A DNA stretch of 36,690 bases, taken from UHGV virus genome UHGV-0304565. One strand, written 5' to 3'. This stretch comes from a virus. The notes under the pieces are model-generated. The model saw only the letters and a list, made by a program, of their open reading frames with translations, was not told the origin of the DNA and did not search any database. The position numbers were made by a program, and so were the translations under genes. Positions 1,096-14,148 of this stretch are shown one piece after another; position 1 is the stretch's first letter; each line of letters opens with the position of its first letter.

Positions 1096-1303
1096 CTACA
1101 CAAGTAAACAAATCAATCAGTTGATAATGGCGGTCACAATTTGATTCTTTCTATAAGAATCCGTTGATCGCCACTACTCTCCTTCCATACCTGCAACCAC
1201 ACCTTTAAATATCAATAGGTTAACGTTGTTTATACCAATAAGAAAACAACTAAATAACAGATCAACGAAACGTCAACGCTTTCACCCGATTTGGTCTAAA
1301 AAA

Positions 1304-1333
1304 TTGACGTTTTCACACACCACTGCTTATACC
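1304..1333 (+). promoter_or_regulatory. Putative sigma70-type promoter (-35 TTGACG, 18-nt spacer, -10 TATACC)
   Basis: Hexamers read directly at 1304-1309 and 1328-1333; it faces into the A+C-rich tract. Confidence 0.4.
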
Positions 1334-1505
1334 CGTAATTCTACGCAGCAGACAGCGCCACAGCGTCCAATTTTCACCACAGACGACCCAACACACTACC
1401 AACAAAAACACACGCTCAAAATCGCTCCCGTTGCGTTACATAACCATATAAACAACTTATTTTCAGGTATAACAAAACAACCAAATAACACATATGCCAT
1501 TACCA

Positions 1506-1590
1506 AAAACAACCAACCTCTTTATGGCAGGCTACCGAAAAGACCCACCTCTTCTTCCCAGGCTACCGGACAACCAACCTAACTTTCACA
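1506..1590. repeat. Copy A of a degenerate ~80-bp repeat (ACCAACCTCTT ... CAGGCTACCG ... ACCCACCT ... GGCTACCG ... AACTTTCAC)
   Basis: Aligns by eye at roughly 80 percent identity with 4683-4755. Confidence 0.5.
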
Positions 1591-2088
1591 GGCAATTCGA
1601 AACTTCCATACGCGCGATACCCACGACACGCCATTACCCAAACAGCGAAGAAACACCAGAATCACTGAAACCCCAACGAAGCCTGTAACCGCAAGGTTTC
1701 TCTCAATCCCAAAAGACACGAAACATAACAATCACGGGAAACGCCATTACCCAATACACGAATAACTACAAAAGCCCTTCACACACTCCAGACAAACAAC
1801 TCAAACACAATAACGAAAACAATCGCCCACCTGCCATTACTCCATATACGGAGAAGAACAATCACCAAAACGACGAGAACACCCCATAGAATAACCACCG
1901 CAAAACGAACGAAACCACATACACCGACAGAGAAAACAACACACCCAATTCACCAACAGAAATAGTCGCCGTATAGAACATTCTGGAAGGAGTGAGCATT
2001 AACGCCTATAGAGAGGTTGAGACAGATAAAACACGAAGAAAACACAACATGTATAGCGAAGAAGCCAGGTATGTATAAGTGGGGAGGG

Positions 2089-2113
2089 AAGGAGGGGTGT
2101 CGCCTCCTTTTTC
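2089..2113 (+). terminator. Intrinsic terminator
   Basis: Stem aaggagg (2089-2095) / cctcctt (2103-2109), 7-nt loop, T-run 2108-2112. Confidence 0.55.
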
Positions 2114-2175
2114 GTATTTATTCAACTACTGATTTTATCCCCCGTAACACCCCTACGGTCAGCCTTCGGTCCATA

Positions 2176-2310
2176 CAGGGAAAAGGCTGCATCCCGCTAC
2201 AGAAACGGCTGGGTTGCCTTCGGGGAACGGCTGGAGGTTTTCAGGGAAACGGTCGAGTTGCCTGTGTGGATTTCGGGAAAAGGCTCGATGCCGGTTCAGG
2301 AACGGCGGCG
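2176..2310. repeat. Iteron-like array A: six copies of cAGGGAAAcGGCTg-type repeats
   Basis: Copies start at 2176, 2199, 2221, 2242, 2274, 2297 (spacings 23, 22, 21, 32, 23 bp), roughly two helical turns apart. Confidence 0.6.
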
Positions 2311-2620
2311 TACCGGTATAGCGAGAGGGAGAGTTGCGGCTACCCACCTGTAATGTGCGGGAAGAAGAGAGGCGCTCACGTAGGCGGACTTGCTTACCGC
2401 TGGATTCCCTCTGAATGCCCAGCTACAGCGTAATTGTGCCAGAGAGTCAGCGGGTCACAATCGATTTCAGTAGGTTTTCGGGGAGAGGATTATTCTGCCC
2501 ACCAGCCACCTTCGGCCACTAAATCAGAATAATGTAAAAAGTGTTCTCGGTACTGAACCTGAAAACTCACTGCCAAAACCACATTCACCGGAATAAAATC
2601 CTTTTTCGCCTTTGCGTTAT

Positions 2621-3103: not shown

Positions 3104-3139
3104 TGGTATTATTTACGCCATTGAGAAAACAAGTTGTTT
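3104..3139 (+). promoter_or_regulatory. Early promoter-operator module: extended -10 TGgTATTAT (3104-3112) plus palindrome AAAACAA-G-TTGTTT (3126-3139)
   Basis: Same -10-to-palindrome spacing as the other copies. Confidence 0.45.
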
Positions 3140-4027: not shown

Positions 4028-4042
4028 ATAACAATTTGTTTT
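4028..4042. promoter_or_regulatory. Palindromic element AtAACAA-T-TTGTTTT
   Basis: Family member upstream of the 4101 gene. Confidence 0.4.
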
Positions 4043-4621: not shown

Positions 4622-4682
4622 TTATTAAGGCCATCAGCATTGGTGGCCTTAAATGACCATCCTGTTTCCCGCAGGCTAAAAA

Positions 4683-4755
4683 CACCAACCTCTTACCTCC
4701 AGGCAACCGACAAACCCACCTGTTCCCGTCCGGCTACCGCAACTTTCCACTTTGA
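4683..4755. repeat. Copy B of the degenerate ~80-bp repeat
   Basis: See 1506-1590. Confidence 0.5.
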
Positions 4756-4805
4756 CGCCTTATTCGTACAACGATAATTAACACCAACAAGAAAACAATT
4801 TGTTA
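4752..4805 (+). promoter_or_regulatory. Early promoter-operator module: -35 TTGACG (4752-4757), -10 GATAAT (4773-4778), palindrome AAAACAA-T-TTGTTA (4792-4805)
   Basis: Hexamers and palindrome read directly; 15-nt spacer is suboptimal. Confidence 0.5.
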
Positions 4806-4825: not shown

Positions 4826-5308
4826 ATGAATTTTATCGCTACTGTAAACGCACCCGCACATGGCAATATCGCTGTAACGTTCTCTGACATTGAAAAACGA
4901 GTACTTGGTGCATGGCGCGACAATGAGACGGTAGAACTGTCAGCACAAGAAAAATGCATTATTGCACGCGACATCATTTGTAATTGTCGTTACTCGCGGG
5001 TAATTGAGAAAGCGTATGTGGTAAATTCTGGATTCGGAACGTTCGTCTTTCCGGTGCGCTCCGGGCGATTCTGCCAGTCCAAGCTGATTGAGTTCGCTAC
5101 GCAGATTTCTGTCTGGATTAAAACTCAATCGTCGTTCAAATTTTCCGACGATGAAGCATTATCGCAGGGGATGCGGATCGCCAACAATGCAATTAAATGC
5201 AAAAACATTACGTATACCGCTGGCGTTGATACATGGAAACTGTTTTGCGCTAACTTTATGCTGAATGTATACGCAAGCAACCGCATCCACATCCTTGATG
5301 GCGTGTAA
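4826..5308 (+). CDS. Hypothetical early protein (160 aa)
   Basis: SD aagga 7 nt before ATG; weak hairpin plus ttctct downstream (5319-5343). Confidence 0.6.
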   Translation: MNFIATVNAPAHGNIAVTFSDIEKRVLGAWRDNETVELSAQEKCIIARDIICNCRYSRVIEKAYVVNSGFGTFVFPVRSGRFCQSKLIEFATQISVWIKTQSSFKFSDDEALSQGMRIANNAIKCKNITYTAGVDTWKLFCANFMLNVYASNRIHILDGV

Positions 5309-5343
5309 CTGAGAAGAGGGCCAGAAACGGCCCTTTCTCTATA

Positions 5344-5475
5344 GCCACCAGCTGCCGCAGGGAAATTTTCAGAAACGGCGAGGAACGTATTCATGAGCCG
5401 ACGGGGAACGGCCAGGATTTTTTCGGGAAACGGCTGCATTCGCCTTTATATAGAAAAAACATCGGGAAGCTGGTG
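5344..5475. repeat. Iteron-like array B (GGGAAACGGC-type repeats) flanked by inverted Chi-like octamers
   Basis: Repeat copies at 5359, 5370, 5381, 5402, 5424, 5463 (11/22-bp phasing); CCACCAGC at 5344-5351 and GCTGGTGG at 5468-5475. Confidence 0.55.
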
Positions 5476-5845
5476 GAATCCAACCAGCGGTTGTCGGACA
5501 GGTGAGCGGGGAAAATTATGATGACTTTCGTCGCCTGAGACATCCAGATTTCTTTCGTAGCGTAATCACATACGTGATTAAGTGGTGTGATTATGTGAAA
5601 AATCACGCGCACATAATACGCGAGCGGATACGGAACAAAACAAAATGCCGATCCGCGCCGACAATTAAACGCGGATCACATAGCAAGAATAAAAGCCAAT
5701 GATTAACCATACACCATAACGCAATATAACGCGATTTAAGCGCGTTAATGCGCTAAGTAATGGGTATATACTGGTAAGGATATAAAAGCGCGTCTGTGGC
5801 GTTATTTTGGCGCTTATTTTATGTTGTTGGAGTGAGTTAAAGACA

Positions 5846-5873
5846 ATAAAAAACGCGCCAATGATGGCGCGTT
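5846..5873 (-). terminator. Intrinsic terminator (minus strand), first of a tandem pair
   Basis: Stem aacgcgcca / tggcgcgtt with loop atga; A-run on the plus strand 5846-5851 gives a U-run on the minus transcript. Confidence 0.6.
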
Positions 5874-5893
5874 ATGGTGGAAGTATTGGAAAC

Positions 5894-5918
5894 GAAAAAA
5901 GCGCCCATAGTGGGCGCT
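5894..5918 (-). terminator. Intrinsic terminator (minus strand, possibly bidirectional)
   Basis: Stem agcgccca / tgggcgct (5900-5918), loop tag, plus-strand A6 before and tttta shortly after; the same 19-mer recurs at 6396-6414. Confidence 0.6.
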
Positions 5919-5923
5919 CGATT

Positions 5924-6378: not shown

Positions 6379-6426
6379 TTTTAAAGCTCCTTTAAAGCGC
6401 CCATAGTGGGCGCTTGATTCCATTAA

Positions 6427-7374: not shown

Positions 7375-7896
7375 TTAAAACGGAAGGATTCGTTCAACCC
7401 AATCGAAGAAAATAAGTATTTTTCTACCGTCTTCCAACTTAAGTGTGACTAGACAGGCGTCAACGCCATCTGACGTTCCCTCAATTTCGCGACCGTCTGC
7501 CATGTAGACCCTTATAGATTTGCCGTTTTGGTAAGCCTGACGACATATCTTAAAAAAGTCACGACGTGATGGCTGATTAACCATCTGTTCATTGTTTAGC
7601 GTTAGTCGACCTGTGAATGAAGTGTCAACCTCTTCTATGCCCGACTCAATTGTGCTAATGCGCTCAAGAGGGAGCCTTATACGATTTGTGTTGCTAAGCG
7701 GATCTGGTGTGAGGTTCAGCTTATTTCTTGCGCTCAATAGCCCGTAGACATACATGCAAAACACTTGGCCGTCTTCGAGAGTGACTCTTACAGGAAATTT
7801 TGCACTCCGCCAGAAGAGCAAGGTGCGCTCAGCATGTTCGTAGTCTCGCGGCCAGACTTCAGCCGGTATGCCGTAGGTGATGTCCAATGTTCTCAT
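7375..7896 (-). CDS. Hypothetical protein (173 aa)
   Basis: Start overlaps the stop of the upstream gene (ATGA); hairpin aataaccgg/ccggttatt downstream at 7338-7365. Confidence 0.55.
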   Translation of the reverse strand: MRTLDITYGIPAEVWPRDYEHAERTLLFWRSAKFPVRVTLEDGQVFCMYVYGLLSARNKLNLTPDPLSNTNRIRLPLERISTIESGIEEVDTSFTGRLTLNNEQMVNQPSRRDFFKICRQAYQNGKSIRVYMADGREIEGTSDGVDACLVTLKLEDGRKILIFFDWVERILPF

Positions 7897-14108: not shown

Positions 14109-14148
14109 AAAACAAGTTGGTTAGCAGATGCAGTAAACAAGTTGTTTT
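14109..14148. promoter_or_regulatory. Two tandem AAAACAA-G-TTGkTT palindromes upstream of the terminase genes
   Basis: Copies at 14109-14122 and 14134-14148, same family as the early-region operators. Confidence 0.45.

Follow-up and report, generated by a model that had tools for sequence, protein, structure and literature searches.

The window analysed here is a stretch of 36,690 nucleotides from the virus genome UHGV-0304565, read on one strand, and the element under study is a gene-free tract near its start in which the plus strand is dominated by A and C. An initial annotation made from the letters alone had placed it at positions 1304-2113, framed by a promoter and an intrinsic terminator, and had seen in it a candidate long non-coding RNA or a strand-biased DNA element. 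Around the tract, the DNA shares 93-97% identity with Escherichia phage Cyrano (the phage-plasmid pLF82 of strain LF82), PhiR41_1 and CMS-2020a, all of them SSU5/pHCM2-type phage-plasmids of ~108 kb. Phage-plasmids of this type are widespread in clinical Escherichia, Klebsiella, Enterobacter and Salmonella, some family members carry resistance genes according to the literature, and their regulation is almost unstudied.

The predominance of A and C on the plus strand, noted earlier for about 1340-2080, was borne out. Positions 1304-2113 contain 314 A, 241 C, 122 G and 133 T (n = 810), which makes 69% A+C, and 48 of the 60 bases in 1741-1800 are A or C where 47 had been counted. Measured over 300 nt, the A+C fraction peaks at 0.77 at position 1648 as compared with a window mean of 0.50 (standard deviation, SD, 0.045), and it stays above 0.66 without break from 1184 to ~2100, which is seen at no other place in the window. 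In the whole 108 kb of Cyrano, this locus is the only A+C run above +3 SD. The core of the tract (1336-1977) has base fractions of 0.41 for A, 0.31 for C, 0.13 for G and 0.15 for T, and the GC skew over 1201-1900 ranges from -0.38 to -0.51. The only other strongly skewed stretch of the Cyrano genome is found at 61,616-62,000 (~16,616-17,000 in the relative L052), with a plus-strand A+C fraction of 0.36; it corresponds to the field of iterons and DnaA boxes upstream of repA, the plasmid origin.

With a more sensitive search, the tract was matched in 839 plasmid records as well as in phage SSU5, the genera represented being Klebsiella, Escherichia, Enterobacter, Salmonella (including pHCM2), Citrobacter, Cronobacter, Shigella, Kluyvera and Buttiauxella. 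The last two were the sole additions from a scan of species-representative genomes; both carry the pHCM2-type tract, and their homologues were retrieved with the motif ATAAGAAAACAAnTAAATAAC from the 5' edge of the module described below. Among the matches listed, almost none has an annotated gene beneath it. A gene-free gap of 1.4-1.8 kb occupies the equivalent syntenic site in each lineage examined, and no annotation was present in the gap of ~1.4 kb in the plasmid records inspected. The site is the border between variable cargo genes and conserved, operator-controlled small early genes. The upstream genes are different in each lineage examined, some of them being expressed in lysogeny (Cyrano), and the small downstream genes are common to the lineages when positions are compared. 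Downstream genes were found to vary between lineages when they were checked with regard to a ToxI-like array with its toxin gene, and in pHCM2 and Enterobacter the next gene lies on the opposite strand. Two relatives from IMG/VR are natural variants: L019 has an IS3-family insertion within the tract at about window position 1830, and L012 keeps the tract and the hairpin, has unrelated sequence from about window position 2150 and carries a fourth copy of the 31-nt repeat. Plasmid H14 has two separate match sites.

Among 16 distinct sequences of the E. coli clade, nucleotide diversity is uniformly 0.02-0.03 over 1238-2340 and 0.09-0.19 on either flank, with a step from 0.09-0.17 to 0.03 at ~1238. 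This profile indicates that the evolutionary unit is 1238-2340 and thus larger than the tract. This conserved unit comprises a promoter-like element, the A+C tract, a hairpin preceded by a G-cluster, and a G-rich segment (Table 1). The limits given by the initial annotation were too narrow, since the unit reaches ~2340, and the operator common to the early promoters and the repeats shared with other places had been missed.

The TTGACG/TATACC pair is present where it had been reported. Its hexamers and their spacing are kept in all lineages, the spacer sequence being variable, and the Cronobacter version reads TTGATC-17-TTATAC. TTGACG fits the sigma-70 -35 element at five of six positions and TATACC fits the -10 element at four of six, the final T being absent; a consensus promoter scan did not call the element. 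At the other end, the hairpin with its T5 run is likewise found (~2086-2113), and it is called as a terminator in the window and in Klebsiella variicola but not in pHCM2. Six lineages retain the hairpin, with G-U pairs that can form only in plus-strand RNA. Its pairing, in 96.7% of cells as compared with 95.2% in shuffles, is not significant, since one arm consists entirely of purines and the other of pyrimidines. The proposed frame of promoter and terminator therefore holds in form (hexamers, spacing, hairpin), with a weak -10 and a T-run that is not universal. From the -10 to the first post-hairpin motif, the distance is 748-826 nt in every lineage. The G-cluster at 2081 is one of only three such patterns in the 36.7-kb window, and the most G-rich 150 nt of the window lies in the 3' domain (G 0.407, +3.5 SD), the non-template strand of the G-rich stretch containing 37-41% G. 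Folding of this domain is no stronger than that of shuffles.

Table 1. Features of the conserved module and of the early region around it, in window coordinates
Feature	Position	Strand	Remarks
Upstream conserved block	1127-1173	+	just past the upstream gene, outside the low-diversity module; nearly invariant across lineages
Outer stem of the upstream block	1127-1135 with 1165-1173		TGGCGGTCA with TGATCGCCA, 9 bp; read from sequence
Inside of the outer stem			GATTCTT-TCTAT-AAGAATC enclosed; GTTGAT motifs present
Module 5' edge	1238-1304	+	half-operator-like AAGAAAACAAC, then TAAATAAC; invariant alignment block
Direct TCAACG repeats	1262, 1273		inverted relative to GTTGAT at 1163 and to the TTGACG -35
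Promoter-like element	1305-1334	+	TTGACG 1305-1310, 18-nt spacer, TATACC 1329-1334; alternative: 17 nt, TTATAC
Core A+C-rich, G/T-poor tract	1336-1977	+	no conserved open reading frame; predicted unstructured as plus-strand RNA
Operator palindrome copy in the tract	1450-1462		AAACAAnTTGTTT with one mismatch; perfect in pHCM2, Enterobacter, Klebsiella, Cronobacter
Dispersed GCCATTAC units	1496, 1630, 1743, 1833 (1496-1861)	+	four copies, different reading frames
31-nt tandem repeats	1506-1600	+	three copies; ACC(A/C)ACCTCTT-N5-CAGGCTACCG; C-rich, anti-Shine-Dalgarno-like
Variable purine-rich link	between core tract (ends 1977) and G-cluster (from 2076)		
G-cluster GGGGAGGGAAGGAGGGG, then hairpin and T5	2076-2113	+	intrinsic-terminator-like end of tract
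Post-hairpin motifs CGTATTTATTCAA, ATCCCCCGTAAC	2114-2150	+	conserved
G-rich 3' domain	2151-2340	+	about six GG(G/R)AAA(A/C)GGC-type repeats, 21-30 nt apart; within the low-diversity module
AAACAAnTTGTTT copies	85-97, 136-148, 1450-1462, 2643-2655, 3127-3139, 4029-4041, 4793-4805, 14110-14122, 14135-14147		
Second 31-nt repeat array	4650-4743	+	three copies; between a terminator hairpin (4628-4652) and the next early promoter module
Second GGGAAACGGC-type repeat cluster	5345-5440	+	just past the terminator hairpin ending the plus-strand early genes; Chi sites flank

Conservation, coding potential and repeats of the tract

Between lineages the tract is 62-69% identical, the value for the E. coli lineage and pHCM2 being 69%. 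In the same comparison, the neighbouring conserved genes have proteins that are 53-69% identical and third codon positions that are 37-46% identical. In an alignment of eight lineages, 283 of the 727 columns are invariant; the variable columns are themselves 59-71% A+C, with 16-17% T in every lineage, and the segments confined to some of the lineages have 66-70% A+C. Among the differences between lineages, A<->C transversions are the most frequent, and they leave the skew intact. The Cronobacter copy gives a BLAST alignment over only 46 nt; it keeps the promoter-like element with its spacing, the operator, the GCCATTAC units, repeats of the 31-nt type, the G-cluster and the post-hairpin motif, in a tract that is T-poor and of the same length. 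Both the skew and the primary sequence are thus conserved among relatives. The earlier description of a discrete, strand-specific element is well founded, given the conserved composition, the 69% identity as opposed to saturated synonymous sites, and the kept length.

Judged from these alignments, the plus strand is under selection for A+C-richness, in sequence and composition alike. A mutational origin of the skew is unlikely, as A<->C changes and not transitions form the largest class and as neither strand is transcribed in lysogens. The strand bias is kept even at positions that vary freely, which suggests a function exerted by a single strand (RNA or exposed DNA) and not by duplex sites alone. 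It is likely that the element functions through its plus strand in single-stranded form.

The tract does not code for protein. Open reading frames (ORFs) at 1226-1582 and 1494-1688 do exist, and stop-free stretches of 60-227 codons are found in every lineage and in all three plus-strand frames, because T is scarce. Which frame they occupy and how far they extend changes between lineages, the alignments of the tract contain indels of 16, 5 and 1 nt, and the GCCATTAC units fall in different frames within one sequence. The NCBI annotation (Prokaryotic Genome Annotation Pipeline, PGAP) of the five RefSeq plasmid records examined contains no gene at the tract, and ORFs that are annotated here in some phage records disagree in position or strand. 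Start codons in 1336-1977 amount to two ATG, one TTG and no GTG, and one Shine-Dalgarno-like motif was counted in 1335-1977. The absence of a protein product, as first proposed, is thus supported by frames that are not conserved, indels that are not multiples of three and repeats that lie in different frames. The tract itself is a discrete, conserved and strand-specific element and not something that T-poor DNA would give by chance. In the same way, the ORF at 2017-2433 (CYRAN_104 in Cyrano), which runs over the hairpin and the G-rich repeats, keeps neither frame nor length between lineages; it is probably spurious, its G/K/R-rich translation mirroring the GGGAAA repeats.

Several repeats were recognized in the tract. 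The direct repeat that had been reported four times is found only three times as GCCATTACC, with GCCATTACT once; the unit found in four copies is the 8-mer GCCATTAC. As 18 of 500 shuffles also contain some 8-mer in four copies, the repeat is borderline in this sequence alone; it is convincing because copies are conserved in the other lineages, which have three to six of them with the consensus (G)GAAC-GCCATTAC-YCCAYAYRCGGAGAAGAAC. The two copies each of ACCAACCT and CAGGCTACCG had been correctly reported, and both lie within the 31-nt repeat, which is itself present in three copies.

The tract also shares elements with the early region. The palindrome AAACAAnTTGTTT has nine matches in the window as compared with 0.21 expected. 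At 136, 2643, 3127 and 4793 it lies 14-15 nt downstream of the -10 of an early promoter (GATAAT or TATTAT), within a repeated module of 55 nt, and it is probably the operator of a repressor controlling the early region. A half-operator-like AGAAAACAAC is found in the tract at 1241 and 1931, and the 31-nt and G-rich repeats of the module recur beside two other terminator hairpins. Read by eye and without scoring, parts of the tract look like decayed copies of early promoter modules.

Predicted RNA structure, transcription and a possible Rho-type barrier

As plus-strand RNA, positions 1301-2000 have a predicted minimum free energy (MFE) of -4 to -15 kcal/mol per 150 nt compared with -37 +/- 8 for the window, of which they are the least structured part; the minus-strand RNA of the tract has an ordinary folding energy. 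Over 725 nt, folding gives -0.13 kcal/mol per nt, controls giving -0.306 +/- 0.023 and the other lineages -0.17 to -0.21. A consensus fold of the first 185 nt in seven lineages reaches only -6 kcal/mol, and no conserved fold was found. Rfam 15 returned zero matches over the whole window at the gathering score and two chance-level ones (E = 2 and E = 8.3) under permissive settings in 1000-2700. A search for tRNA and transfer-messenger RNA (tmRNA) genes found none.

Expression was taken from a published RNA sequencing (RNA-seq) reanalysis of the LF82 lysogen, which gives Cyrano genes in ten samples (PMC9928086, S1 Table); Cyrano is a 97%-identical relative. The upstream gene CYRAN_102 has 50-64 normalised reads in the lysogen in LB medium and more in other conditions, and the next early gene, CYRAN_105, reaches up to ~200 fragments per kilobase per million (FPKM) inside macrophages (PMC9928086). 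Between them lies CYRAN_103, whose window positions 1226-1582 include no more than the first third of the tract; its value is 0 FPKM in LB and at most ~14 FPKM in all ten samples (PMC9928086). No long non-coding RNA, as had been proposed, is thus detected from this 5' third in lysogens. In the window, in pHCM2 and in K. variicola, the DNA from the upstream gene to the tract was found to lack an intrinsic terminator, so that in the lysogen reads drop from 50-64 to 0 across a junction devoid of one.

The termination factor Rho prefers RNA that is rich in C, poor in G, free of structure and untranslated (review PMC12360218). The features that characterise rut (Rho utilization) sites are found in the sequence, with C well above G over at least 60-80 nt, a predicted lack of structure and few ribosome signals. 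For the plus strand, C/G amounts to 2.68 in the window, three other lineages giving 1.78-1.88, and YC dinucleotides number 88-109 per 643 nt. Since the plus strand is A+C-rich, a rightward transcript would be single-stranded, lack start codons and ribosome-binding sites and be C-rich and G-poor over ~650 nt. The reading favoured here, tentatively, is that the module is a composite transcription barrier or sink, in part Rho-dependent and in part hairpin-based, placed between the cargo and the repressed early genes. Rho would load on the naked A+C RNA, and polymerase would be released at or before the G-cluster, the hairpin and the G-rich segment. Read-through from the cargo would in this way be kept from the early genes unless the phage overrides Rho, and transcripts from the weak promoter-like element of the module itself would likewise be stopped before reaching them. 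The G-cluster, the hairpin and the G-rich 150 nt form, on sequence grounds, a plausible pause and release zone. It is from such features that we infer where Rho may load, where termination may occur and what the module may be for.

Known rut sites, such as rutA/rutB of lambda tR1 and those of leader attenuators, have in common with the tract a C-rich, G-poor, untranslated RNA predicted to be unstructured, a location upstream of a pause and release zone, and a placement where foreign or phage transcription must be silenced. Characterised rut sites measure roughly 60-100 nt, whereas the tract has five to ten times that length, a strong depletion of U, an abundance of A, a highly conserved primary sequence, repeated motifs and a promoter-like element of its own. 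Several points weigh against the barrier. Simple Rho loading needs neither 650 nt nor 39% invariant columns, and the conserved primary sequence and repeated motifs, which a barrier does not explain, imply extra sequence-specific partners. Known Rho sites are C-rich and often U-rich, and the strong U depletion and A excess are not explained through Rho alone. A barrier has no need of a promoter-like element at its 5' end, yet this element is among the most conserved parts. E. coli and some other lineages have T5 behind the hairpin; pHCM2 and Enterobacter lack it. Because the upstream gene of Cronobacter lies on the opposite strand, cargo read-through cannot be the sole reason for the module. 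The zero reads in lysogens, which bear on the first third of the tract, could equally result from cutting and degradation of the upstream transcript. Altogether, Rho binding and termination at the tract remain a cautious prediction from sequence features. The promoter-like element, the U depletion, the length and the degree of conservation are what lend the RNA acting in trans and the R-loop origin considered below their share of probability.

If the barrier exists, a mobile element that swaps its cargo shields its lytic programme from cargo transcription, and the module would be a natural, portable and very strong insulator. With regard to Rho loading itself, it would be a giant, stand-alone and conserved variation on known Rho sites. 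A literature search found no description of an element at this locus, nor of phage RNA decoys of Rho, and a 2026 preprint on phage-plasmid copy number deals with a different family. In every reading, the tract clearly exemplifies selection that acts on the composition of a strand itself and not on its sequence or fold.

Alternative readings of the module

Another reading is that the module produces, from its promoter-like element and during the lytic cycle, a hairpin-capped decoy or scaffold RNA of ~0.78 kb that acts in trans by holding a protein that prefers single strands. Being U-poor, such an RNA is expected to have few RNase E sites; it would be unstructured and its repeated motifs would serve as binding sites. 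Candidate partners are Rho, the gp32-like single-stranded DNA-binding protein (SSB) of the phage, ribosomal protein S1 or the 30S subunit, and another protein of the phage. This reading, which is rather doubtful, accounts for the promoter-like 5' end and hairpin 3' end held at a fixed distance of 748-826 nt. The opposite strand of the next gene in pHCM2 and Enterobacter indicates that the unit is not the leader of a downstream ORF. The conserved sequence, together with the GCCATTAC units and 31-nt repeats in the same orientation, suggests sequence-specific sites in an accessible single strand; the conserved GCCAUUAC and the anti-Shine-Dalgarno-like repeats would be such specific sites. The phage does encode a gp32-like SSB, and T4 gp32 binds the unstructured leader of its own mRNA. 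The words sponge, decoy and titrate are absent from a 2025 review of Rho regulation, so that the niche appears empty. However, no transcript is detected in lysogens, including conditions in which the early genes nearby are partly active, the final T of the -10 is missing, and Rho translocates along RNA instead of staying bound, which would make titration inefficient. A structure-free RNA invisible to ribosomes and serving in trans as a decoy or landing platform, with Rho and the gp32-like SSB as leading candidates, would be a new kind of RNA, and this too is not very likely; if true, a naked RNA acting in trans would be a categorically new type of phage RNA.

Tests of known sponge logics also speak against a decoy, as they gave no signal beyond base composition. 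CsrB/RsmZ (for CsrA) and CrcZ (for Hfq/Crc) are similarly long and non-coding, with repeated single-stranded motifs and a promoter and terminator frame. In contrast to them, the tract has few GGA and no (ARN)n above shuffles, and the motifs of CsrB sit in hairpin loops whereas the tract RNA is nearly devoid of predicted structure. A sponge for the distal face of Hfq, of the CrcZ type, was rejected with 13 ARN triplets in runs of at least three as compared with 12.3 +/- 5.8 in shuffles; an excess of (ARN)n is lacking in three of four lineages, the fourth, L039, having 22 as compared with 9.5 +/- 5.3. A CsrA sponge of the CsrB/RsmZ type was rejected with only 3 GGA in 1336-1977. The 3' domain has 8 GGA in 190 nt, about 6 being estimated by hand from its G and A content.

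SroC and AgvB (prophage-encoded, in enterohaemorrhagic E. coli) are C/A-rich RNAs of phage or host that mimic GcvB targets, and the host range of the element coincides with the GcvB-bearing bacteria. Known GcvB sponges are under about 200 nt, against ~780 nt here, and the complementarity of the tract to the R1 seed is no better than that of shuffles. With the GcvB sequence verified against E. coli genomes, the mean duplex energy was -16.01 as compared with -16.00 +/- 0.37 for shuffles, and complementarity in three other lineages was weaker than in their own shuffles; a GcvB sponge was thus rejected. The minus strand at 7375-7896 encodes a 173-aa protein matching Pfam Flag1_repress (FljA, the phase-1 flagellin repressor) with E = 1.4e-68. 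FljA acts on the fliC mRNA leader, and the phage-plasmid copy, as predicted by this match, might silence host flagellin. Because of this gene, similarity of the tract to the fliC leader was checked; local alignment scores equalled those of shuffles, and a mimic of the leader for an FljA-like protein was discarded.

Other candidates fared no better. Antisense targets in the phage plus strand were at chance, with 30 as compared with 24.7 expected for k = 11 and 5 as compared with 6.3 for k = 12. A type III antitoxin array (ToxI-like) was rejected, as Tandem Repeats Finder reported nothing in the window or pHCM2 and the downstream genes are variable. Short matches to the tmRNA resume region (9 nt) and to the 16S 530 loop (8 nt), as well as P1-pac-like TGATC(A/G) motifs, were judged by eye to be at chance level.

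An unlikely alternative is that the module is a transcription-primed (R-loop) origin or a replisome-loading zone for lytic replication. Transcription starting at the promoter-like element would arrive at the G-cluster and G-rich segment, where the RNA would stay hybridised to the C-rich template; RNase H or a helicase of the phage would make the primer, and the A+C tract would prevent both the RNA and the displaced DNA strand from folding. A G-cluster at 2081 followed by the most G-rich stretch is the usual anatomy of R-loops, and the G-rich repeats, 21-30 nt apart, are iteron-like. The phage has T4-type genes for UvsW helicase, UvsX/RecA, UvsY, gp32-like SSB, RNase H, primase and helicase. 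T4 origins F and G use R-loops that UvsW removes, and the phage shares UvsW and RNase H with such systems; T4 oriF/oriG and ColE1 RNA II also resemble the module in that a non-coding transcript runs from an upstream promoter to a G-rich segment, where it ends. The plasmid origin with repA is 33 kb away, so that a separate lytic origin is needed. However, nearest-neighbour energies do not favour RNA:DNA hybrids of A+C-rich RNA, which leaves the tract as a mere spacer. Its 650 nt far exceed the length of a T4 origin element, and its length and composition have no counterpart in the T4 and ColE1 origins. In addition, no DNA unwinding element is evident, and RNA II is highly folded whereas the tract transcript is predicted to be unstructured. 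The cumulative GC skew has no inflection beyond that due to the composition of the tract itself, no initiator gene lies beside the module, and the natural variants with an IS3-family insertion in the tract or with unrelated sequence in place of the G-rich domain may also argue against an origin. If true, this would be the first lytic origin defined for the SSU5/pHCM2-type family. An iteron-type plasmid origin at the tract was rejected separately, since the RepA gene and its iterons lie at 60.6-62 kb of Cyrano, 33 kb off, and their repeats are unrelated; the iterons and DnaA-box-like sequences at RepA were read directly from the sequence.

It is quite improbable that the module is an array of regulatory sites in duplex DNA, or the relic of one, made of duplicated early-promoter modules, operators and protein-binding repeats, with the skew as a by-product of A/C-rich motifs in the same orientation. 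Its proper support comes from the operator of the regulon at 1450, the half-operator-like AGAAAACAAC already mentioned and the 31-nt repeat shared with the region upstream of the promoter at 4750. By eye and unscored, 1570-1660 resembles a decayed form of the promoter module at 4741-4800, and the GCCATTAC units resemble the start regions (ACGCCA...AGAAAACAA) of such promoter modules. The second most skewed place of the genome is, moreover, the repA iteron field. Duplex sites cannot explain, however, why variable columns and insertions between the motifs are equally A+C-rich and T-poor. The balance of purines and pyrimidines is even, and we know of no property of duplex DNA that changes with A+C as opposed to G+T skew. 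As for a relic, neither 69% identity where synonymous sites are saturated nor a kept length is expected.

Finally, a low-complexity P/T/N/Q/H/K-rich protein, for example from ORF 1226-1582 (CYRAN_103), is extremely improbable: the stop-free stretches in all lineages, the ORF annotated here in two phage records and the tRNA-Asn, tRNA-Thr and tRNA-Ser genes on the phage are outweighed by the shifting frames, the indels, the repeats in all three frames, the five RefSeq records lacking a gene, the near absence of start codons and ribosome-binding sites, and the 0 FPKM of CYRAN_103.

Other features of the early region

Inverted motifs containing GATC (GTTGATC/GATCAAC) are found at 1162 and 1259, 97 bp apart, on either side of the 5' limit of the module. 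Further downstream, the second 31-nt array is followed by the promoter of the gene at 4826, and plus-strand RNA at 4651-4701 is also unusually unstructured, with an MFE of -12 to -18 kcal/mol per 150 nt.

The Chi sequence GCTGGTGG is present in 10 copies in the window (for instance at 2499, 5345, 5469, 9174 and 13884) as compared with 0.75 in shuffles. Such an enrichment would fit a protection of linear replication products from RecBCD. The copies at 5345 (minus strand) and 5469 (plus strand) lie in a second gene-free region of ~600 nt (5309-5923), at which plus- and minus-strand genes converge. This region also contains a terminator hairpin (5316-5340), four to five GGGAAACGGC-type repeats that resemble those at 2170-2310, and a hairpin AAAGCGCCCATAGTGGGCGCT that is repeated at 6394-6414.

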